42,604 bases of DNA from Candidatus Lloydbacteria bacterium RIFCSPHIGHO2_02_FULL_50_18 (lineage in GTDB: Bacteria; Patescibacteriota; Minisyncoccia; Phycocordibacterales; UBA6899), in contig MHLM01000016.1 in assembly GCA_001821395.1 (NCBI GenBank), positions 1 to 42,604 on the forward strand, given 5' to 3'. Below, in pieces: positions 1-42,202 of the stretch. Below the pieces are notes generated by a model, which saw only the letters and a list, made by a program, of their open reading frames with translations, had not been told where the DNA came from and ran no database searches. The translations under genes and the position numbers were made by a program. The stretch's first letter is position 1, and each line of letters opens with the position of its first letter.

Positions 1-1565
<1,565 letters not shown>

Positions 1566-4607: not shown

Positions 4608-4684
4608 TATTTTTTTGCTTGTCTTGATGAGAGAAACATCATCGTTCAAACAGTGCAGTTGCTCAATGCGTGCGGCGTATCGGT

Positions 4685-5320
4685 CTACAAGCACCCTGAG
4701 GATCGAGCCCAGCCGGCCTCAACACGAATGATCGCGGCCTCGATCTCACGGGAAAGAACATTGTGCTTCTGTGCAAGCGGCAAATAGATACGCCGTGCGA
4801 TCTCAACGATGCGTTTCTGCTTTTGGATATCACAGGCAAAAAGTGTACGCAGGTTGTGCAACACGTCGGGAAGCTTGTTTTCGAGCACATCAGTAGGAGC
4901 ATCTAAAAAACGTTCACTGTATGCCTTGTCTCGCGCCGTTTTGTTCGGAAACTCTTCACGAGGGTCTTTACTCGACCACCTGACATAGTACGAAGGACCC
5001 TGACCGAACTCTGCCTCGATCTCTGCGTGCGTCTTTCCTTTAATATCCTCCACGACGTCGTGAAGCAGGTCTGCAATAATCTGTGCCGGATTTTTCACCC
5101 CAACGCAGATCACAGCGATAAGCGCGACCGAAACGCCATGACCAAACGCCGTCGATCCATCTTCACGCATGCGATTGCGGCATGCCTTCTTGGCAAACGC
5201 ATACGCCCGCAGGATCTCCTGGTACTGCAAGTCAGTTTCCGGAAGAAATTTTTTGATATGACGGAACAAGTCCCTTTTTGGTGAGCGAGTCGCAAGCACC
5301 TTATCAACGCATTTCAACAT
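4685..5320 (-). CDS. HD-domain phosphohydrolase of the RelA/SpoT hydrolase type (small alarmone hydrolase / Mesh1-like), 211 aa.
   Basis: HGVSVALI...DLLHDVVEDI matches the HD motif of (p)ppGpp hydrolase domains. ATG at 5320 is preceded by a G-rich Shine-Dalgarno; the listed start at 5350 is a GTG. Confidence 0.7.
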   Translation of the reverse strand: MLKCVDKVLATRSPKRDLFRHIKKFLPETDLQYQEILRAYAFAKKACRNRMREDGSTAFGHGVSVALIAVICVGVKNPAQIIADLLHDVVEDIKGKTHAEIEAEFGQGPSYYVRWSSKDPREEFPNKTARDKAYSERFLDAPTDVLENKLPDVLHNLRTLFACDIQKQKRIVEIARRIYLPLAQKHNVLSREIEAAIIRVEAGWARSSGCL

Positions 5321-5384: not shown

Positions 5385-5607
5385 AAAAGATATTAAACCC
5401 CAGGGCAAGCCCTAGACTCGCAATGAGCTCGCAAGGCCTCACGCGAGTCCGCGGCAGAGCCGTGGGGTATTGAACTTTTTTAGCTCTCCTCGGCACCACG
5501 GTGAGTACTTCCATTTTTCTAAAGCAGAATACTGCTAAGAAAAATTGGTCGCTCGGAGATGAAAAAGAAGACCTTTTCCATTTCGCTCGCTCTACGTCGG
5601 CAATAAA
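5385..5607 (+). repeat. Repeat element A, copy 1. It is a structured unit of about 150 bp, here carrying a nested 59-bp insertion of element B at 5494-5552.
   Basis: Near-identical to the copies at 10292-10457 and 28201-28365. Hairpins ccagggcaagccctgg, gactcgc...gcgagtc and ccgcggcagagccgcgg; flanking direct repeat ggtattaaacc; hairpin gaaatgaaaaag...tttttcatttc. Confidence 0.85.
5494..5552 (+). mobile_element. Element B copy 1, a roughly 59-bp hairpin-bearing miniature element nested inside element A at ctcctcgg^ttcgga.
   Basis: caccacggtgagtacttccatttttctaa...ctaagaaaaattggtcgc matches the B copies at 20885-20942 and 23017-23074. Element A copies 2 and 3 lack it. Confidence 0.75.
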
Positions 5608-8865: not shown

Positions 8866-9035
8866 CTAAGAGCCCATCGAATAACTATTTACGTTACGAA
8901 AATTCATGGTGTTGTGGCGAAAAAATTTTATGCTGACCGATGGTGTGCCTATAGGACACAGCGAGGGAAGATAAAATTTTTACAGCCCGACAACATGGAT
9001 TTGCAGTCGTAAAGAGTTATTCGATGGGCTCTAAG
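8866..9035. mobile_element. Candidate 170-bp miniature element bounded by 28-bp imperfect terminal inverted repeats (ctaagagcccatcgaataactatttacg / cgtaaagagttattcgatgggctctaag).
   Basis: The two arms are reverse complements with 2 mismatches. The element sits in the promoter region of the hydrolase gene. There is only one copy in this window. Confidence 0.5.
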
Positions 9036-9251
9036 GTTTCGCACATCCAATGAGACAATCGGGGTCGGTGTTTCCGCCACGATATGTGCTCACCGCAAAG
9101 ATCGTCACCACGGACAACATGATGATCCCGATAAATCCAAAGGCAAAGCGGAAGAATGTCTTGCTGAAGAAGTCCACGATATGCTCAGTATAGCAATATT
9201 ACTGCTCGTCAGTCGACAAAAATCCCCCCCTAAAAAAAAGGGGGGGTGATA

Positions 9252-10291: not shown

Positions 10292-10457
10292 AAAAGGTAT
10301 TAAACCCCAGGGCAAGCCCTGGACTCGCAATGAGCTCGCAAAGCCTCGCGCGAGTCCGCGGCAGAGCCGCTGGGTATTAAACCTTTTTTAGCTCTCCTCG
10401 GTTCGGAAATGAAAAAGAAGAATTTTTCATTTCGCTCACTCTACGTCGGCAATAAAG
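10292..10457 (+). repeat. Repeat element A, copy 2, intact. It lies between the two secreted paralogs.
   Basis: Near-identical to 5385-5607 (minus the B insert) and to 28201-28365. Confidence 0.85.
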
Positions 10458-10483
10458 CAAAACCCCCACAGTGGGGGGTATAT

Positions 10484-11640: not shown

Positions 11641-12315
11641 TCAATCGACGGCTTTCTCGACCTGTTCTTTCTCATAGTCCAGCCATTCTTCAACAAATTT
11701 GGCGAAGTCTCCTGTGTTTTCAAAATAATCAGGAAACTCGCTCGGTGAAAGTATCGCCGACTCTTCCCTTTTGCCAACGGCATAATCCTCGTAGCTCGAA
11801 TATCGATACCCCTCGAGATACTTCTTCGCCGCAGACAGATTCTTGATTCCTCCCTCCTTCCACTCGGGCTCGATCAGTTTCACGGGGTTCAAGTGAATAT
11901 ACGCATATAGGTATTTCAAATACTCGTCACTGTCGACATGCTCCGCCTTAAATCTACCTTGAAATAGCGGACCAACCCTCTTATTCTTTAAATTGAAATA
12001 CTTCGAGTAGCTCGTAGTGAGTTTTTCCATGAACGTACTAACTCCCCCTTCAGATATCTCCTTAACAAGTAGGTGAAAATGATTATTCATAAGTACATAC
12101 GCACCAATCGCAACAATTTTGTCATCTACCTCTATTTTATCCAAAGGCAGCCTTTGGATAAGTTTATAAACTACTGGCCGAGTGCTATTTGAGATGTGTA
12201 ACATCCGGTGGAAACGTACTCGATCACTCCTATCCATGAAGATATCTCTTTTCTCAACTCCGCGATTGTAAACGTGGTAGTACTCCCCTTCTGCAAAAGT
12301 AATCTTTCTATTCAT
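11641..12315 (-). CDS. HUH Y1 transposase, IS200-like / REP-associated tyrosine transposase (RAYT-1), 224 aa.
   Basis: YHVYNRG...YVLMNNHFHLLV (HUH motif)...GPLFQGRF.AEHV...YLKYLYAYIHLNPVK (catalytic Tyr region). A paralog is at 32268..32930. The cognate palindrome ccaaaggctgcctttgg lies upstream at 12331-12347 and 12397-12413, and inside the CDS at 12141-12157. Confidence 0.85.
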   Translation of the reverse strand: MNRKITFAEGEYYHVYNRGVEKRDIFMDRSDRVRFHRMLHISNSTRPVVYKLIQRLPLDKIEVDDKIVAIGAYVLMNNHFHLLVKEISEGGVSTFMEKLTTSYSKYFNLKNKRVGPLFQGRFKAEHVDSDEYLKYLYAYIHLNPVKLIEPEWKEGGIKNLSAAKKYLEGYRYSSYEDYAVGKREESAILSPSEFPDYFENTGDFAKFVEEWLDYEKEQVEKAVD

Positions 12316-12486: not shown

Positions 12487-12530
12487 GGCAAACACAAAAG
12501 CCCCTTTCGGGGCTTTTGTGTTTGCCAAGG
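12487..12530 (-). terminator. Strong terminator for the surface-protein gene. Perfect 18-bp stem ggcaaacacaaaagcccc / ggggcttttgtgtttgcc with a tttc loop.
   Basis: Hairpin followed by a T-run in the minus sense, about 50 nt after the stop at 12579. Confidence 0.7.
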
Positions 12531-16689: not shown

Positions 16690-17000
16690 AGCAGACAGCC
16701 AACTTCTCTAGGGTCGAACCTCCCAAAGCTGAGGAACGACCTTGGGCTGTCAAAGACACTGGTAAAGGTGTCTTTGAAAGTTGTCTTTGAGGCGGTTGTT
16801 TTAGGGGTGTAGGAAGGTGTGCACAACGTCGATGGGAATAGGCGGATGCTTAAAAGTTGGGGAGAGATGGGAGACAGACAACTTCTCTGAGGTTGGACCC
16901 TAAAAAATGAACGGCTTCATCAAGGTTGAACCTTTCAAAGCCAGACAACTTCTCCAAGGTCACACCTTCCAGAGCTAAGGAATGACCTTAGTCTGATATT
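16690..17000. repeat. Cluster of REP-like hairpins in a 1.1-kb intergenic region. Units at 16708-16746 and 16936-16973 match the consensus, and half-units lie between them, each preceded by acaacttctc.
   Basis: Consensus ccaagg-NNNN-acc-tYYcaaagcYRagg-N-NNNN-accttRg. Other units: 17462-17499, 17559-17596, 18426-18463, 20992-21029, 33433-33470, and a split unit at 22997-23016 plus 23075-23091. Confidence 0.8.
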
Positions 17001-17076
17001 GGTGACTAACCTTCGCGAAGTGAATATATGCTCCCCGAAGCAAAGACGAAGACGTCTTGCAACGGGGCAGGCCAGC

Positions 17077-18045
17077 TTATCCAATCAATGAGTATGTTGA
17101 CCACCTACGTTCGCCCCTTTTGACCAACGTGCCTTCTATCACCATGGAGAGAAGTTCACGCTGAATGGTTTTTTCTGAAATGCCGGGGATGCTCTTTGCG
17201 ATATCGCCGACCGTGATGGCGGGCTTCTGCTTGATGAGCGCGAGGATGATCTTGCGTCGGTCATCACGGGTCACATCAGGGCGAGAGCGGGCGATGACAT
17301 CGCGGTCGGAGATGACCAGGCGAGGCTGCATGTAGGAGCGGGCGGGTTGCGGAGTTGGGGTATTGGGTGCTCTTGGTGAGACTAAGGGGGGTTGTTGCAT
17401 CATCAAGGAATCACCTTTGCGCTGCGTTGTCGCTGGTGTGAATTGCTGAATCGTTGTGGGTGCTGCAACCAAGGAGACACCTCTCAAAGCCGAGGAGTCA
17501 CCTTGGTTTTGCTGCGGGGTTGGAGTGAACGTGCGCACGAGAGGAATAGCGGGAGTATCCAAGGAGACACCTTCCAAAGCTAAGGAGTCACCTTGGGTAT
17601 CTTTCGGTACCTCAAAAAAGCGTTCACTCAGCATCGTCTTGCTTCGCTCTTGCATGCGATTCCATTCCATCTCGACGCCATCCTTCAGTGCACAATATTC
17701 TTTCCGCAACATCGAGGCGTTCATCTCGCTCACCAAGTGTGTTGATGTTGCGACATCAAGAAACGAGATCAGCTTCTCGATCTTCTTTAGGACGACACGG
17801 AGCATGCTCATCTTCTCGCTCGACGAGATCGTCGCTGCGACCGTGATGTCGGAAAGCACTTCGACTCCGACCTCCCTTGTTTTCCACTTCATCGGCTCAC
17901 GATCGGACAGAATGTCCGTAACGAGGTAAAGCGCCGTTGTGAGCTTCTCCGCTTTGCGCACAATATACCCATAGCCGTGAAAGGCTTTGGGTGTTTGCCC
18001 TTCGTGGGTGTTCTTATTTTGCTGACTGTCCTTTTGATGTTCCAT
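17077..18045 (-). CDS. Hypothetical protein of 322 aa with a C-terminal winged-HTH domain. The central low-complexity linker contains two in-frame REP-like hairpins.
   Basis: C-terminus DIAKSIPGISEKTIQRELLSMVIEGTLVKRGERRWSTYSL is wHTH-like. The REP units at 17462-17499 and 17559-17596 encode the duplicated peptide QGDS.AL.GVSL. The gene is divergent from ftsK. Confidence 0.55.
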   Translation of the reverse strand: MEHQKDSQQNKNTHEGQTPKAFHGYGYIVRKAEKLTTALYLVTDILSDREPMKWKTREVGVEVLSDITVAATISSSEKMSMLRVVLKKIEKLISFLDVATSTHLVSEMNASMLRKEYCALKDGVEMEWNRMQERSKTMLSERFFEVPKDTQGDSLALEGVSLDTPAIPLVRTFTPTPQQNQGDSSALRGVSLVAAPTTIQQFTPATTQRKGDSLMMQQPPLVSPRAPNTPTPQPARSYMQPRLVISDRDVIARSRPDVTRDDRRKIILALIKQKPAITVGDIAKSIPGISEKTIQRELLSMVIEGTLVKRGERRWSTYSLIG

Positions 18046-18236
18046 ATAGTGTCTTTAAATTGTCCTTATATGATGTCACACAATTTATTAAAAGTCAAAT
18101 GCTGTCTATTAACCTGTCCTTGAATGCGTCTGGAGCAATAATTTATGTCCATCATACTCACCGACGGCAGAATGTCCAATAGTGTCCGATTGAGGGCGGA
18201 ATGGGGCAAAAAAACACCTGTGGATAACCTACGCTC

Positions 18237-18328
18237 GGGATTGCTTATTGAGGGCACGCATAAAAGTCTGCTGACTTTTTGCTCAGACTCCCGCCGCCGC
18301 GGTCCGTAGCCCCTCAATAAGCAATCCC
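18237..18328. promoter_or_regulatory. Long hairpin: perfect 18-bp inverted repeat gggattgcttattgaggg / ccctcaataagcaatccc around a 56-nt loop that contains a smaller hairpin. It lies in the divergent promoter region upstream of ftsK, next to a DnaA box at 18219-18227.
   Basis: Inverted repeat read directly from the sequence. Confidence 0.45.
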
Positions 18329-18505
18329 TCGCTCCGCAGAAAGTATTTGGAGTTTCATGAGAATCATTTAATGCCGTGGCACCAAAACCGGAGGAATTGC
18401 GGCAAATATAAAATGGACAACTTCTCCAAGGTCGGGTCTATCAAAGCCTAGGCCCGACCTTAGTCCATTTTTTTGTGATAAAATCAGAGCAAATTAAATA
18501 CCGCT

Positions 18506-20827: not shown

Positions 20828-20884
20828 CGCTCAAATAATACCCTTACGGGGCACGCCTTCAATTTTTCCAGCGAAAAATTGTTG

Positions 20885-20942
20885 CACCACAGAGAGTACT
20901 TCATTTTTCTAAGGCGGGGTACCGTTAAGAAAAATTGGTCGC
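20885..20942 (+). mobile_element. Element B copy 2, directly followed by element C.
   Basis: caccacagagagtacttcatttttctaaggcggggtaccgttaagaaaaattggtcgc. Confidence 0.7.
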
Positions 20943-20956
20943 AGGGGAACGACCTT

Positions 20957-21068
20957 ATACCATCGCTCGTTAACCATTTCTGAATAAGTTTCCAAGGAGA
21001 GACCTTTCAAAGCCAAGGACTCACCTTTGAAACTTACAGAAACGGAAAAGATTAATTGGAGATGGTAT
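20957..21068 (+). mobile_element. Element C copy 1, a roughly 112-bp MITE-like unit with about 11-bp terminal inverted repeats (ataccatcgctc...gagatggtat) that carries an internal REP-like hairpin.
   Basis: About 98% identical to the copy at 33398-33509. The TIRs are reverse-complementary. Confidence 0.8.
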
Positions 21069-21087
21069 TAGTCTGGCATAAGAAAAA

Positions 21088-21332: not shown

Positions 21333-21397
21333 AGCATTCTCCTCATGAATTTCTTCAACGACCATACCAACAGAAAATCATTGCGTCAATCAAGCTA

Positions 21398-21438
21398 TCC
21401 TAGGGGTACCCTAAAATTCCTAGGGACCCCTAGGAATT
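21398..21438. promoter_or_regulatory. Tandem near-palindromic 20-bp repeats (tcctaggggtaccctaaaatt / cctagggacccctaggaatt) upstream of the small-ORF/recA unit. Candidate operator. They are followed by a direct repeat tttccgatttt x2 (21446-21468) and a TATATA element just before the ATG at 21493.
   Basis: Read from the sequence. Each half is a near-palindrome around GTAC or A. Confidence 0.4.
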
Positions 21439-21492
21439 GGGGGATTTCCGATTTTATTTCCGATTTTGTGTCTCCTCGTGTATATATAGAGC

Positions 21493-22972: not shown

Positions 22973-23016
22973 CGGGAAGGCGGCGAACAACTTCTTCAAG
23001 GTCTTACCTTTCAATG

Positions 23017-23074: not shown

Positions 23075-23114
23075 CAGGGAGAGACCTTAGTCCGCCAAAA
23101 AAGAAAAAGAAAAT

Positions 23115-27389: not shown

Positions 27390-28202
27390 ATGTTAAAAGG
27401 ACACGAATCAAGACTCTCAGACAAGCAGCGATACCTTCAGGTGGCGCTTAATGGTACGCGTGCAGATGCACGGGCGATCCTCTCCGTCTTACCATCTTCC
27501 GAACGCATCATCATTGAAGCGGGTACACCCCTCATCAAACGTTATGGTATCGGCATCATCAGGGAGATCTACGACTGGGCTCCGCGGGGGACATTCGGAG
27601 CAGCGGCAGACCGCCGCGCACTAGACGCAAAAATAGCACAATTTGGTCTGATCGGTGCTGTGACACGATCATTTACAGAAGCACAGCGAACACTCCGGGT
27701 GGCGGGAGTGGAGCAGGCTTCAAATAGGCCGTACATTGTTGCCGATATGAAAACGATCGACCGCGGTGAAACAGAGGTGGCGATGTGCGCCTCGGCTGGT
27801 GCAAGTGCAGTGATCGCGATGGGTTCTGCTCCCATCGAAACGCTGAATACCTTCATCGCGTCCTGCGAGAAATACGGCCTCGATGCAATGATTGATATGA
27901 TGAATGTTGAATTCCCACTTGCCGTACTGCGCTCACTCAAAAAACCTCCGCGAGTCATCGTGCTCCACCGCGGTGTCGACGAAGAGCGTGACAACGGACA
28001 AAAAATGCTTCCGCTCCACGAGATCCGTCGCCTCAAGGGGCAATACGACGTCCTCATTGCCGTCGCGGGAGGCGACACAGCGCGGGAGGTACAGAGTGCG
28101 GCATTCAACGATGCGGACATCGTCGTGATATGGAAATCGGTATATGAACAAAACGGCGAGACGCTCGAGCTCATTGAGGGATTTCTCAAAACGATCAAAT
28201 AA
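27390..28202 (+). CDS. OMP-decarboxylase-fold protein of the 3-hexulose-6-phosphate synthase (HxlA) / KGPDC-like family.
   Basis: LQVALN...IEAGTPLIKRYG...IVADMKTIDRGETEVAMCASAGASAVIAMG...VIVLHRGVDEE...AVAGGDT aligns to HPS blocks (LQVAID, ELGTPLIK, FADMKTMD, AGGV). The usual Asp in LQVAID is Asn here. Confidence 0.6.
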   Translation: MLKGHESRLSDKQRYLQVALNGTRADARAILSVLPSSERIIIEAGTPLIKRYGIGIIREIYDWAPRGTFGAAADRRALDAKIAQFGLIGAVTRSFTEAQRTLRVAGVEQASNRPYIVADMKTIDRGETEVAMCASAGASAVIAMGSAPIETLNTFIASCEKYGLDAMIDMMNVEFPLAVLRSLKKPPRVIVLHRGVDEERDNGQKMLPLHEIRRLKGQYDVLIAVAGGDTAREVQSAAFNDADIVVIWKSVYEQNGETLELIEGFLKTIK

Positions 28203-28365
28203 AAGGTATTAAACCCCAGGGCAAGCCCTGGACTCGCGATGAGCCCGCAAAGCCTCGCACGAGTCCGCGGCAGAGCCGCGGGGTATTAAACCTTTTTTAG
28301 CTCTCCTTGGCTCGGAAATGAAAAAGAAGACTTTTTCATTTCACTCGCTCTACGTCGGCAATAAT
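28201..28365 (+). repeat. Repeat element A, copy 3. It sits between the HPS-like stop codon and a strong 12-bp-stem terminator at 28372-28401.
   Basis: Near-identical to the other two A copies. The terminator gaacagcgtatc-atgctc-gatacgctgttc plus a T-run follows. Confidence 0.85.
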
Positions 28366-32267: not shown

Positions 32268-32930
32268 TCACTCCAAGGTGGAACCTTGGAAATTAAGCCA
32301 GTCGCTGATATATTCGTCAAATTGTTCTGCATGCTCAAAGTATTCGGGAAAATCTTTCACCGAAAGAATGGGTGACTCGATCCGTTGTCTACCCTGCCAG
32401 TCTTGCATACTCGAATAAACATACGCGCTCAAATACTTTTTTGCAGCTGCAGGATCCTTGATTCCCTCTTTTCTCCACGTTGGATCGATGAGTTTGACCG
32501 GATTAAGATGAATGTATGCAAAAAGATACTTCAGGTATTCATCTCGCGACACATACTCCGCCTTGAATGTTCCCTGGAAGAGCGGCCCGACACGTTGGTA
32601 TTTTTTATTAAAGTACATTGTGTATCCCGTCGTCAATTTCCTCATAAACTCAGTGATGCCTGTATCATTTGTTGCACGGACAAGCAGATGGAAATGATTA
32701 GGCATCAATACATATGCACCCATGGCACACTGTGCGTTGCCGCGACCCTTGGGATCAAGCACGTCCCCAGCAAGCAGCTTGTAGACGGTCGGACTATCAC
32801 CATTCGCGTAAAACAACATCCGCTGAAAGCGCACATGATCAGGGTCATCCATGAATACCTGCCGCTTCTCCACTCCACGATTGTAGACATGGTAATACTC
32901 GCCCTCAGAAAAAGTGATATGCCGATTCAT
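32268..32930 (-). CDS. HUH Y1 transposase, IS200-like/RAYT (RAYT-2), 220 aa. Paralog of 11641..12315.
   Basis: YHVYNRGVEKR...YVLMPNHFHLLV...GPLFQGTFKAEYV...YLKYLFAYIHLNPVK. Its last codons lie inside one copy of the palindrome ctccaaggtggaaccttgg (32271-32289). An identical copy lies upstream at 32954-32974. Confidence 0.85.
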   Translation of the reverse strand: MNRHITFSEGEYYHVYNRGVEKRQVFMDDPDHVRFQRMLFYANGDSPTVYKLLAGDVLDPKGRGNAQCAMGAYVLMPNHFHLLVRATNDTGITEFMRKLTTGYTMYFNKKYQRVGPLFQGTFKAEYVSRDEYLKYLFAYIHLNPVKLIDPTWRKEGIKDPAAAKKYLSAYVYSSMQDWQGRQRIESPILSVKDFPEYFEHAEQFDEYISDWLNFQGSTLE

Positions 32931-32953: not shown

Positions 32954-32974
32954 CTCCAAGGTGGAACCTTGGAG
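32954..32974. repeat. REP-2 palindrome ctccaaggtggaaccttggag, about 25 bp upstream of the RAYT-2 ATG. A second copy at 32271-32289 overlaps the RAYT-2 stop.
   Basis: 8-bp stem with a 5-nt loop, two identical copies in the same orientation flanking the gene. Confidence 0.8.
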
Positions 32975-39434: not shown

Positions 39435-41369
39435 CTACTCGACAACAACGCCTGATTCCGGAGGTGCCTTCGGATCGGAAGGGAGCTCAATCGTAACGTC
39501 TTTGACCTTCTTGACTATCTCAGTGTTCGTGAAAGAGTCGGTTGCGGTCAACTGCATCCCATTGATGAGCACCGGCGTAAATGAAACCTGAGACAAACTT
39601 GGCAAGATCACAAGCTGAAAGGCGACTTCACGCGGGGGCTTAGTGATACCCGTACCGGCCGGAATGCTTCCGGGGAGCCAAATTATTTCATTTGTTGTCT
39701 GATCGAAGGTGACCTTCTCCGTCGACGGAGAGACTGCGCCATACCATTTCACATACGGAGGTATCACTCCGCGCACGCGGGCATCAACGATATTGTTCGA
39801 GGTATTCACCACGCTCCAGATGATCGTGTAGGTCGTTTCTTGCTCGACCTTCGGAGGGATTGGTCCTGAATTGACGAACGGACCGACGAAGTGCACACCC
39901 CGGGCAACAAATTGAGCCTCGGAGGACATGCGAACAGTCTGCGACATCACCGTCTTGATCTCTTCGGGGACTTTTGTGGGGTCATCGGAAAGACGCTTGC
40001 CGCGCACGGTCACCTCGGCGGTGATCACAGGATTCGTCGTCACCTGATTTCCTGCAACTGCGGGCAGCGGGGTCAGGAAAAATCGAACCGCACCGCTTTC
40101 TCCGGATTCAAGTGCAGTGAGGGTTTGATCACCGCGTTCATCCCAGAAAATAGTATTATCCAACGAGCGGTAAAATCCGCCATTCGCCGCACCGACTGAA
40201 GAACGGTCAAGCGCAGTCCCACGAAAGGAAACCTCGATCTGTGCGTTTATTATCCTGGTCGGGAGATTGTTCTTCCAGGTAATAACGCCTTCGATCCGAC
40301 TACCGTACGAAGCGAGCGCGTCGCCTGCGGGTTTTCCGTTGATCGCGAGCGTGATGCCAATGAATGGACGCTTCACGGTGACCTCCGATACGACTTTTCC
40401 GTAGAGCGTAGCGATCTCACGCTCGGTCTTATTACTCCCCACCCCGATGTTCGTATGAAAGACCCGCTGCTCCGTATCAGCACCTTCCAAGATACCATTG
40501 ATCACGATAGGGAATTTGCCCGACGGACTGAGGGTACCGATGCGCCAGATATTATTCCCGAACGTGGGCTTTGGCTCAGCTCCGATAAAGGTAAAACCCT
40601 GCGGATACTCAACGACGATGAAGACGTCACGGAGCGGGATAACCGTATTTGAAATTGCACTGATCAACAGATCAAAACGCTGCCCCGAGTTTATTTCCTT
40701 GAGCGCATTCACGACAAGATTCACCGGCGCGGCGAGAATGCGTATCGGTCGAGACTCCTCTTTTGTAAGGATGGAATTAACCCCTTCAAAACGATACTCC
40801 AGTACCGCACGAATATCTTTTGTTTCGTTTTCTTCACCCAAGAAGATGGCATTCCCACGAAATTCGATCGACTCACCCGCCTTGATCACTCCGAGCACCC
40901 TCTTTTGATCGCGCAGGTCCTTGTCGGAATTCGCACCATCGCGCGTTCCGGACGGATAAAAAAGCGTAAGGTTGGCATATTCAAGTCCGACTCGATTTTG
41001 ATTTGCGATGTGCACCACGATGTCCGCGGGAACCCCGGGATTGACGCCGACCGGCGTTTCAAATGTAATGAAAATATTTTTATCGGAGACCTGCCGCAGT
41101 GGATCAAAATATTGATAAAGCAGGAACGCACCGGATGAAACCGCCGTCAGCACCGCAATGAGCACGAGCAACTTCAAAAAGAAGTTTATCCCGGGTTTTT
41201 GTGAGCGTTCTTTGCGCTCGGTGATGATCTCCGTGTCACCCCAATCGTTCTCAACATCAACGCGCGAAGGTGAAAGCTCGGCGTACTTTTCACCTACTGC
41301 TTCCTCACCGGGTTTATACAATCCGCGCTTTGTCCGCTCAAGTCGGCTTTTTTCATATTCAGTATCCAT
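39435..41369 (-). CDS. Hypothetical membrane-anchored protein of about 645 aa. Cytoplasmic N-terminus, single TM, large extracytoplasmic domain.
   Basis: Long ORF with TM helix FFLKLLVLIAVLTAVSSGAFLLY. No recognisable catalytic motif. The start is taken at MDTEYEKS. Confidence 0.6.
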   Translation of the reverse strand: MDTEYEKSRLERTKRGLYKPGEEAVGEKYAELSPSRVDVENDWGDTEIITERKERSQKPGINFFLKLLVLIAVLTAVSSGAFLLYQYFDPLRQVSDKNIFITFETPVGVNPGVPADIVVHIANQNRVGLEYANLTLFYPSGTRDGANSDKDLRDQKRVLGVIKAGESIEFRGNAIFLGEENETKDIRAVLEYRFEGVNSILTKEESRPIRILAAPVNLVVNALKEINSGQRFDLLISAISNTVIPLRDVFIVVEYPQGFTFIGAEPKPTFGNNIWRIGTLSPSGKFPIVINGILEGADTEQRVFHTNIGVGSNKTEREIATLYGKVVSEVTVKRPFIGITLAINGKPAGDALASYGSRIEGVITWKNNLPTRIINAQIEVSFRGTALDRSSVGAANGGFYRSLDNTIFWDERGDQTLTALESGESGAVRFFLTPLPAVAGNQVTTNPVITAEVTVRGKRLSDDPTKVPEEIKTVMSQTVRMSSEAQFVARGVHFVGPFVNSGPIPPKVEQETTYTIIWSVVNTSNNIVDARVRGVIPPYVKWYGAVSPSTEKVTFDQTTNEIIWLPGSIPAGTGITKPPREVAFQLVILPSLSQVSFTPVLINGMQLTATDSFTNTEIVKKVKDVTIELPSDPKAPPESGVVVE

Positions 41370-41614
41370 ACTCCAACAATTGTACCATTTACCACAAGAG
41401 ATGTAAGACCAGGCAATCAGTTCTTGGGATTCACGAGAATCAATTAAAATACCCGCAGATACGAGGCGCGGGGAATGGGGCGAGCGACCAAAATTCAATG
41501 ACCGTAGGGAATATGAATTTGGAAGTCCCAGTATGGGGGAAGACGTATGAGCGATACGTAGACCGAGCCACAGAGGCCCCGCAACAAAGTAGATGGGGGT
41601 ATTTTAATTGATTC

Positions 41615-42202
41615 TCAGAGTTGCGTTGAGTCGAGCGCTCTATTCACCCCGGCGACTATTTCAGTACGCATCGGGCGGATCTTCGCAAGGTCCTCATGAC
41701 TAAATGTCACGCTCGAAAACACTGGAAGCAGGTCTTTTTGTTCACCCCAATAGCCAAGCGCATCAAGCAAGCGAACCACAAGGAGTAATTCCGCATCTTT
41801 TTGCGACTCGCGATCAGCAAGCGTTGAAAGCAGGGTGAGTCCTTTGAGCATATCGTCGAACAACAATTCATGGCGCTCTTCTCCCTGAATAAGCCTTCTC
41901 GCAAGATGGAGATGCTCCGCCGCGATACGCCGTCTCCCCGCATGAGACCAGAGTTCACTGAATGATGCTATCGGCGTCGCGGAAATAAGTTTCCATCCGT
42001 ATTTTCCCCGGATCAGATCGACCCGTGCGTGAGAAAAAAGCTGAAGTGCATACCGCAGCCGCGAGCGGTTTTCTCGGATGCTGCGTGCATGCGCAACAAC
42101 GAGCCCCAGCTCGCGTGTGTAGCAATAAAGAAGGCGATCCCCTTCACCCGATGGCAGCGTGCCCAAAATGATTGCTTCGGTGTGGTAAATGTGGTGGCTC
42201 AC
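41615..42202 (-). CDS. recO: DNA repair protein RecO (short form).
   Basis: The N-terminal OB-fold pattern TEAIILGTLPSGEGDRLLYCYTRELGLVVAHARSIRENRSRL matches RecO_N. Confidence 0.65.
   Translation of the reverse strand: MSHHIYHTEAIILGTLPSGEGDRLLYCYTRELGLVVAHARSIRENRSRLRYALQLFSHARVDLIRGKYGWKLISATPIASFSELWSHAGRRRIAAEHLHLARRLIQGEERHELLFDDMLKGLTLLSTLADRESQKDAELLLVVRLLDALGYWGEQKDLLPVFSSVTFSHEDLAKIRPMRTEIVAGVNRALDSTQL

Follow-up and report, generated by a model that had tools for sequence, protein, structure and literature searches.

How did one small structured repeat come to lie inside another in an ultra-small bacterium of the Candidate Phyla Radiation (CPR, Patescibacteria), a group taken to have streamlined genomes with little mobile DNA? 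The locus that raises this question, positions 5385-5607, belongs to a 42,604-nt metagenome contig (hereafter the window) of Candidatus Lloydbacteria (Paceibacteria). The window proteins are identical to NCBI entries OGZ06450 onwards, the same contig is present in ENA, JGI and Logan assemblies, and by RecA the closest named relatives are Paceibacterota, Nomurabacteria and Yonathbacteria. A first-pass annotation made from the letters alone had proposed that three families of miniature elements, A, B and C, are nested here, recently mobile and driven by HUH transposases. We find that the locus is a copy of family A, a structured non-coding repeat, with a family B hairpin element in one of its small loops. 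The earlier interpretation is partly supported: its core (mobile, nested, polymorphic elements) holds, whereas some of its details are wrong. As a whole, the best explanation is that A, B and C are mobile non-autonomous elements moved by Y1 (HUH) enzymes, to which we assign a probability of about 0.6.

Three repeat families and their empty sites

The three families lie where they had first been placed (Table 1). Family A, ~165 nt long, has three window copies; A2 and A3 are 93% identical, and A1 without its insert is 91% identical to A2. Family B (58-60 nt) is likewise present three times, with 95% identity between B2 and B3 and 85% between B1 and either of these, and every A and B copy is on the + strand. 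The two copies of family C, each 112 nt, agree at 110 of 112 positions and carry, as had been claimed, terminal inverted repeats (TIRs; ATACCATC...GATGGTAT, 8-11 bp) and a central hairpin resembling repetitive extragenic palindromic (REP) sequences; they fold as single long hairpins (z = -6.3 and -7.4). It is impossible that repeats this long and this similar arose by chance.

At the locus itself, A1 and its insert together span 223 nt. The 5' part of A1 comprises the head (TAAAAGATATTAAACC followed by the hairpin CCAGGGCAAGCCCTAG), the domain-1 hairpins, a T-run and the stretch of domain 2 that precedes the B1 insertion. B1 is a net insert of 58 nt, with GC ambiguous at the junction. The TCGG on both sides of B1 might suggest a target duplication; in the uninterrupted copies, A2 reads CTCC-TCGG-T-TCGG and A3 reads CTCC-TTGG-C-TCGG. 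Since both TCGG-type motifs pre-exist in copies without an insert, and B1 falls between them, they are not a target duplication. Furthermore, A1 with B1 is base-for-base the same in assemblies of different samples (L001, L242, L243 and L246; L numbers denote the loci and contigs compared), and because four separate assemblies agree, an artefact from collapsed repeats is excluded. Non-autonomous dispersed elements, one nested in another, are present as had been proposed.

The mobility of these elements was addressed by comparing filled with empty sites between strains. Gene order is conserved in relatives whose RecA is 84-93% identical, but their intergenic DNA is too diverged to align, so closely related strains (runs SRR22388057 and SRR23617215) were reached via protein clusters at 90% identity. 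In two close strains the sites of A1 with B1, of A3, of C2 and of the block holding B2 and C1 are all empty, within flanking DNA that is ~90% (C2 site) to ~95% (ftsK site) identical. The block missing 3' of ftsK (L244) consists of a degenerate REP half, a 20-nt hairpin, B2, a REP half and C1; the following 300 nt are ~95% identical, and the final FtsK codons differ. C2 is missing 3' of metG (L245), and A3 is missing 3' of pyrF (L247), where the empty allele reads CAAATA^GACTTTTG and the filled allele CAAATA^AAAGGTATT...GGCAATA^ATCTCC (^ marks a junction). In the empty allele pyrF ends with the stop codon TAG; in the filled one the first bases of A3 complete a TAA instead. At the A1 site (L248), A1 and B1 are missing and ~9 unrelated bases separate the terminator T-run from TTTTA. 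Given these four orthologous empty sites, the elements have come or gone within the time over which strains diverge. Six more distant relatives carried neither A nor B in the ~90 kb of their DNA that is syntenic.

The placement of A relative to genes differs from the first description, according to which it always lies between gene ends. Only A3 is situated between convergent genes; A1 lies 35 nt upstream of the start of an HD-domain gene and downstream of a 322-aa gene, A2 is flanked by two co-directional genes, and the wider family has no preference for convergent ends. All three window copies adjoin intrinsic terminators downstream of minus-strand genes. As for B, the proposal that it splits a REP-like hairpin into two pairing halves holds for B3, the flanks of which pair at -15 kcal/mol; at B2 the left REP half is degenerate and carries an extra 20-nt hairpin.

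L239 and L181 have C-type ends at further sites. In L239 they bound a 157-nt element with another interior (positions 258-414; ATACCATC...GATGGTAT) between a Glucodextran_B-like gene and recA, in an organism with 93% identical RecA; the corresponding window site is without the element. Positions 1-21 of this public contig are non-genomic, being left over from an Illumina adapter (TACACGACGCTCTTCCGATCT). Upstream of the Glucodextran_B-like gene the hairpin repeats differ between strains (CCTAGGGGTACCCTA and CCTAGGGACCCCTAGG at window positions 21385-21470; GGTAGTCTTTGG..CCAAAGACTACC at ~2780-2900 of L244), and this region is a further hot spot of turnover.

Table 1 Repeat copies, Y1 genes and REP-like hairpin cluster of the window, in order of position.
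Feature	Position	Strand	Basis or remark
A1, 5' part	5385..5492	+	alignment with A2 and A3; head profile match; fold
B1, inside small loop of A1 (CTCC-TCGG^C-TCGG-AG)	5493..5552	+	alignments
A1, 3' part: domain-2 hairpin GAGATGAAAAAG..CTTTTCCATTTC, tail CGCTCGCTCTACGTCGGCAATAA	5553..5607	+	alignment, fold
A2, no insert	10292..10457	+	adjoins intrinsic terminator 10462-10479 of 284-aa gene
Y1 transposase-like gene number 1 (224 aa) with HFH and YIHLNP motifs	11641..12315	-	
REP-like hairpin cluster (CCAAGGTC..CCT..CAAAGC..AGG..GACCTTGG)	16698..18465		at 16708, 16954, 17469, 17559, 18426
B2, 3' of ftsK	20884..20942	+	within 250-nt block 20828-21078 absent from strain L244
C1, long hairpin, 112 nt	20957..21068		absent from strain L244
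B3, 3' of recA, in REP-like hairpin loop	23016..23074	+	REP halves ~22997-23015, 23075-23090
A3, no insert	28201..28365	+	absent in strain L247
Y1 transposase-like gene number 2 (220 aa), candidate trans-acting enzyme	32268..32930	-	Pfam PF01797 Y1_Tnp on identical protein P0143
C2	33398..33509		110/112 identical to C1; absent from strain L245

Families A and B outside the window

A 20-mer from the left end of A was searched against the GTDB species-representative genomes and recovered at least 115 loci. Many of the contigs belong to Flavobacteriaceae, Bacteroidales and Rikenellaceae, or to Desulfobacteraceae, Syntrophaceae and other Thermodesulfobacteriota; Patescibacteria are represented by Saccharibacteria, Moranbacteria, Kaiserbacteria and Pacebacteria. 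Single loci come from one Clostridia and one Neomarinimicrobiota metagenome-assembled genome (MAG), for both of which binning errors are possible. A large share of the loci listed comes from a single Flavobacteriaceae MAG, and ~10 come from a single Patescibacteria MAG. The copies share the start AATAAA[A/T]GG[T/C]ATTAAACC-CCAGGGCAAGCCCTGG-AC[C/T]C, which is followed by lineage-specific hairpin stacks; they usually repeat GGTATTAAACC, and the right end reads ..AATAA(A) or ATTAAA. Ten extra heads were found in the A loci without selection, five matching the 20-mer exactly and five diverged; the head is strongly conserved, yet not invariant. The A head was absent from 2.9 million viral contigs, and A from 72,556 plasmids.

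Downstream of the head the family is built of modules. CPR-type copies have two fold domains, for which RNAalifold gives 42 pairs, 17 of them with compensatory changes, and the closing stem covaries as AAGG/CCTT, CGGG/CCCG and ATGG/CCAT (Bacteroidales). Many copies have an additional complete hairpin in the loop of another, and the two head hairpins may be fused, as in L024, L043 and L100; minimal forms have two CAAG-loop hairpins in direct orientation, and the right-end hairpin of the window form is unrelated in sequence. The left junction is AATA^A, with TAA at -9 in 112 of 120 copies, and the right end is AATA, as in A3 (CAAATA^AAAGG...GGCAATA^). This TAA was considered as the stop codon of the upstream gene, a suggestion rejected since it is true for only 9% of copies. 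The CPR form is without TIRs; in the Flavobacterial form a sub-terminal AAACCCCA is common to both ends, and its left AGTAAA does not co-vary with its right AATAAA, so that a duplication would amount to TAA(A) at most. The copy in L012, which diverges after the head, was considered as an autonomous element and proved to be truncated, adjoining an unrelated gene. A Patescibacteria contig with an A copy (L011) also contains a group I intron at 4679-4929 (Rfam RF00028, 72 bits).

For family B, a gapped pattern searched against metagenomes identified at least 113 loci, leaving 84 distinct contexts after filtering. The consensus is (GC)ACCAC-a-r-GAGTACTTC(C)A-TTTTTCTAA-[variable apical hairpin]-TAAGAAAAATTGG-TCGC, 54-61 nt long, a single hairpin domain whose ends GCACCA...TGGTCGC form an imperfect 6-7 nt inverted repeat. 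In the apical hairpin 98.5% of cells are paired and three pairs are changed on both sides, a value reached by 0 of 500 shuffles. The ends are sharp, no duplication is seen, and tandem copies adjoin exactly as ..GGTCGC^ACCAC.. (L217, L229, L205). The flanks are random on both sides apart from a weak preference for GC, which precedes the element in only about half of the copies, and a fixed target tetranucleotide of IS200/IS605 type is not borne out for B. Three matches to a B 17-mer were found in the viral contigs; by a rough estimate, such a recurrence is possible by chance.

B enters other repeats recurrently. It occupies a fixed position in the loop of REP-like hairpins (CAAA^GCCAAGG) in other organisms too (L139/L224, L173, L208), a different position within an A-like element in L232, a place inside another repeat whose B-free form follows recA in L233-L235, and both orientations within yet another repeat. 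Flanks pair at -12 kcal/mol or below in 22% of copies compared to 12% of controls (p = 0.007); B in hairpin loops is thus an enriched minority, and the idea that B always sits there was rejected. A twin of B1, 59/60 identical, lies at another locus, in L170, a contig that, judging by its name, may stem from the same aquifer project. In the fetched loci the two families do not co-occur, with no B in A loci and no A head in B loci. One B-bearing contig is Paceibacteria-like by a UvrA check; this, together with A in several Patescibacteria classes, argues against the first-pass view that such elements are unusual in a streamlined genome.

No match to A, B or C was obtained in Rfam 15 at the gathering threshold or at E up to 5-10, nor to copies from other lineages (Flavobacterial, Bacteroidales, Desulfobacterial, CPR) at the gathering threshold. 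A full-text literature search with the head and B sequences returned no paper, and a keyword search on CPR miniature inverted-repeat transposable elements (MITEs) or REP-associated tyrosine transposases (RAYTs) returned nothing relevant. The A and B families, the cross-phylum head and the 58-nt lodging element appear undescribed in searchable resources; the kind of element is already known.

Y1 enzymes as candidate drivers and the alternatives

That A, B and C are mobile non-autonomous DNA elements we regard as very probable; that Y1 (HUH) enzymes move them is a more tentative proposal, which we hold at somewhat less than even odds. Under such a mechanism, the elements would move as single-stranded hairpin DNA, and cutting and rejoining would be carried out in trans by Y1 tyrosine transposases of the RAYT or IS200-like type. 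The candidate enzymes would be encoded by the two Y1 genes of the window, which the first-pass annotation had pointed out and each of which is flanked by REP-like hairpins. Y1 number 1 has hairpins on its 5' side (TCCAAAGGCWGCCTTTGGA at 12139, 12331 and 12396; CCAAGGTAGGTCCTTGG at 12525). Y1 number 2 has an identical 17-nt hairpin (CCAAGGTGGAACCTTGG) at either end, at 32273-32289 and 32956-32972, and forms with them a ~720-nt unit that resembles a minimal IS200; since the same locus is occupied in strain L245, it has not moved recently. The two proteins are paralogues (58% identical) of a family with thousands of members, in which 55-60% identity extends across CPR classes and to a non-CPR Kryptobacter MAG, and the best NCBIfam model for both is NF047646 (REP-associated tyrosine transposase).

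The REP-like hairpins form a family of at least seven copies in the 42.6 kb, the same family that is interrupted by B3 and carried by C, and their core pattern CCAAGG..CCTTGG is observed five times compared to 0.03 expected. Together with the Y1 genes they may form a REP/RAYT-like system. As in REP, BIME (bacterial interspersed mosaic element) and REPIN systems with their RAYTs, the hairpins are short, extragenic and multi-copy, flank a single Y1 gene and form mosaics of hairpin modules, and C, a REP hairpin extended to a long hairpin, is REPIN-like. The two new families depart from this pattern: A has at least 165 nt and two multi-hairpin domains instead of a 20-40 nt palindrome, and its head occurs in at least three phyla with many copies each, whereas REP families are species-specific; the hairpin flanking the Y1 genes is a different one from B; and the window hairpins lack a GTAG-type 5' motif. 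The hairpin that accompanies the window Y1 gene, TCCAAAGGCAGCCTTTGGA, stands directly after ftsK in L237 and L238, and L190 has a variant, TCCAAGGGGTACCCTTGGA (2430-2455), after a Y1 homologue and ~50 nt from a B copy.

Two of the REP-like hairpins, 17469-17506 and 17559-17596, are translated in frame inside a 322-aa gene (open reading frame (ORF) 17077-18045, minus strand), adding QGDSLALEGVSL and QGDSSALRGVSL to a variable linker; the 300-aa homologue in L237 is without both. This recalls Rickettsia palindromic elements, in that a hairpin is in frame twice in a gene and adds QGDSLALEGVSL-like segments. The likeness concerns the REP-like family and not A or B, which are almost always intergenic.

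Palindrome-associated transposable elements (PATEs) are gene-less IS200/IS605 derivatives that can encode guide RNAs, and IS200/IS605 elements carry end motifs (transposon-adjacent and transposon-end motifs, TAM/TEM) and internal guides (PMC10055086). A and B resemble them in having no TIRs and no visible target duplication (B flanks are random; for A 3-4 nt of ATA/AATA are possible), and in having hairpins near the ends on one strand. The AATA^...AATA^ junction and end motifs of A recall TAM/TEM, to which B has only its preceding GC as counterpart. Moreover, the orientation of A appears biased with replication-strand composition, as in such elements: local GC skew is negative at 66 of 109 loci (p = 0.035, in a test that counts copies of one genome as independent, which weakens it), with 46 versus 21 at strongly skewed loci and the same direction in four of five lineages, whereas B has no bias (30 of 53). 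These end features and the skew of A would, with caveats, be hallmarks of single-strand "peel and paste" elements. The differences from PATEs are that no autonomous parent with tnpA, tnpB or iscB was present in the fetched loci, that one end only is conserved across lineages, and that no complementarity between a guide and a cleavage site is evident. A is accordingly PATE-like by its end properties but has no autonomous parent among these loci. The PATE-like character claimed for B stands as far as the lack of TIRs and duplication is concerned and falls with its one hairpin domain and the lack of a fixed target, so that B fits no described class well.

Elements that target hairpins are known, IS1397/ISKpn1 and IS621 inserting in REPs and class C group II introns after terminators. 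About one fifth of B copies lie at hairpin tips and A copies adjoin intrinsic terminators, as would be expected of such elements; in contrast to them, B has 58 nt, encodes nothing and is mostly outside hairpins.

A number of observations weigh against the favoured explanation. The empty sites are unclean, in that a few bases beside one junction differ in each comparison; for this reason the cut sites cannot be read exactly, and a 3-4 nt ATA/AATA duplication is possible for A. No autonomous copy of A or B, with an end beside a transposase gene, occurred in the fetched loci, and all-against-all clustering of ORFs around 115 A and 113 B loci gave no recurring protein family, only housekeeping genes. 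Three copies have a Y1 homologue in their vicinity (in L009, where it is frameshifted, in L190 and in L230), which is about the chance expectation. The Y1-linked hairpins of the window are of the CCAAGG..CCTTGG type, neither A heads nor B, and both Y1 proteins score below the NCBIfam RAYT cut-off (44-46 bits versus 80). B, with one hairpin domain, no target tetranucleotide and no skew bias, is unlike a classical IS200/IS605 derivative. Conservation across phyla is confined to the left end of A, whereas a Y1 enzyme should recognise both ends, and comparison by eye of the AATA motifs with the bases 5' of the hairpins, on either strand, revealed no convincing complementarity of the IS608 kind. 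Because no A or B ends were found beside transposase genes in these loci, the Y1 hairpins are REP-like and only one A end is conserved, the link of Y1 enzymes to A and B is one that we infer.

Among the other explanations, the one that survives best holds that A and/or B are structured-RNA genes or cis-elements, such as terminators or stabilisers of 3' untranslated regions, small RNAs, or scaffolds of omega-RNA-like guides. We consider it unlikely. The strong covariation of the hairpins would suit an RNA, as would the stable tetraloops of A hairpins on the reverse strand (CUUG in the head, UUCG in Bacteroidales), where the head becomes a stem-loop with a U-rich tail and is flagged by a terminator scan. 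The position of the three window copies of A beside terminators, downstream of minus-strand genes, is of the same kind, although a role in termination could simply follow from insertion beside terminators. PATEs often encode omega-RNAs (PMC10055086), and conserved sequence across phyla suggests a conserved binding partner; against a guide function, the neighbourhoods of the copies share no TnpB- or IscB-like gene, and against a known RNA class, Rfam has no match even to copies from other lineages. A lies between '++' gene pairs 30 times, '--' pairs 27 times, divergent pairs 17 times and convergent pairs 10 times, and B 15, 15, 12 and 11 times, both almost always in intergenic DNA. As neither family has a gene-orientation bias, with many A copies between divergent genes, and as the copies are dispensable (missing in sister strains), nested and dispersed in many copies, selfish DNA is favoured over a strand-specific RNA.

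Less probable still is that the elements are classical MITEs derived from insertion sequences with a DDE transposase (IS630/Tc1-like or IS5-like, with TA/TAA duplication) and mobilised through TIRs. C, with its 8-11 bp TIRs, recurs with different interiors and would fit, but its four copies have no consistent duplication. The (A)ATA/TAA-type motifs at both A junctions would allow a duplication of 3-4 nt, but the CPR form of A is without TIRs, and in Flavobacterial copies the left and right motifs do not co-vary and a duplication is TAA(A) at most. The imperfect inverted repeat at the ends of B is likewise not accompanied by a duplication, its flanks being random. No DDE transposase was found among the scanned window ORFs or near the copies. 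The known MITE families Correia/NEMIS, ERIC, RUP and BOX likewise consist of small structured repeats, present in many copies between genes, which are at times nested or mosaic and may bring terminators or promoters with them, and they share TIRs with C; unlike them, A and B have neither TIRs nor TA duplications, and those families are confined to a genus or family instead of crossing phyla.

Finally, slippage or template switching at palindromes with gene conversion, the families being recombination products without dedicated transposition, would account for the many A copies that differ by a whole hairpin in another's loop, for the fusion of head hairpins and for the reshuffled sequence beside the junction in every empty/filled pair, but is very improbable in view of the sharp, constant B ends in 84 unrelated contexts with exact tandem junctions, the near-identical copies at distant loci (C1/C2, B1/L170), and the constant junction motif and 38-nt end of A conserved across phyla, since slippage cannot carry sequence to unrelated loci or between phyla.

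Further window features and implications

Several other structures in the window are recorded here. Positions 8866-9035 form a 170-nt near-perfect inverted repeat with nested arms (8866-8893/9008-9035 and 8900-8931/8971-9002) between a hydrolase gene and a 305-aa gene; it has no Rfam match, and JGI calls an odd 22-residue gene across 288 nt (~8906-9193) over it. A 182-nt segment at 41435-41616, also without an Rfam match, is closed by a 28-nt inverted repeat (GAGAATCAATTAAAATACCC.../...GGGTATTTTAATTGATTCTC) and overlaps the 5' end of a 687-aa ORF (39435-41498, minus strand) and its upstream region. The left window end holds the 5' half of a 23S rRNA gene (1-1559, minus strand) with several inserts relative to the bacterial model; inserts in 23S rRNA genes are common among CPR bacteria. 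Beyond this gene, no tRNA or further Rfam family was found in the window at gathering scores.

With regard to family A, its near-invariant 38-nt end (AATAAA-GGTATTAAACC-CCAGGGCAAGCCCTGG-ACCC) leads us to suggest, tentatively and at odds short of even, that A may be one branch of an undescribed multi-phylum superfamily sharing this end, spanning Bacteroidota, Desulfobacterota, Patescibacteria and probably others, and that B may be a second, Paceibacteria-associated element. If so, there would be a conserved trans-acting enzyme or RNA-binding partner for the A head as well as transfer between phyla, and B, at 56-60 nt, would be among the smallest discrete mobile DNAs known, lodging in the loops of other elements.

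In these 42.6 kb, at least four interacting repeat families vary between sister strains. They remodel gene ends, as at the pyrF stop codon and the FtsK C-terminus, and enter one coding region in frame. The families are usable as strain-level markers in uncultured bacterial populations. The occurrence of the 38-nt end across distant phyla points to a conserved, apparently uncatalogued recognition system, and finding the partner of the A head would add a new mobilisation or RNA-binding system.

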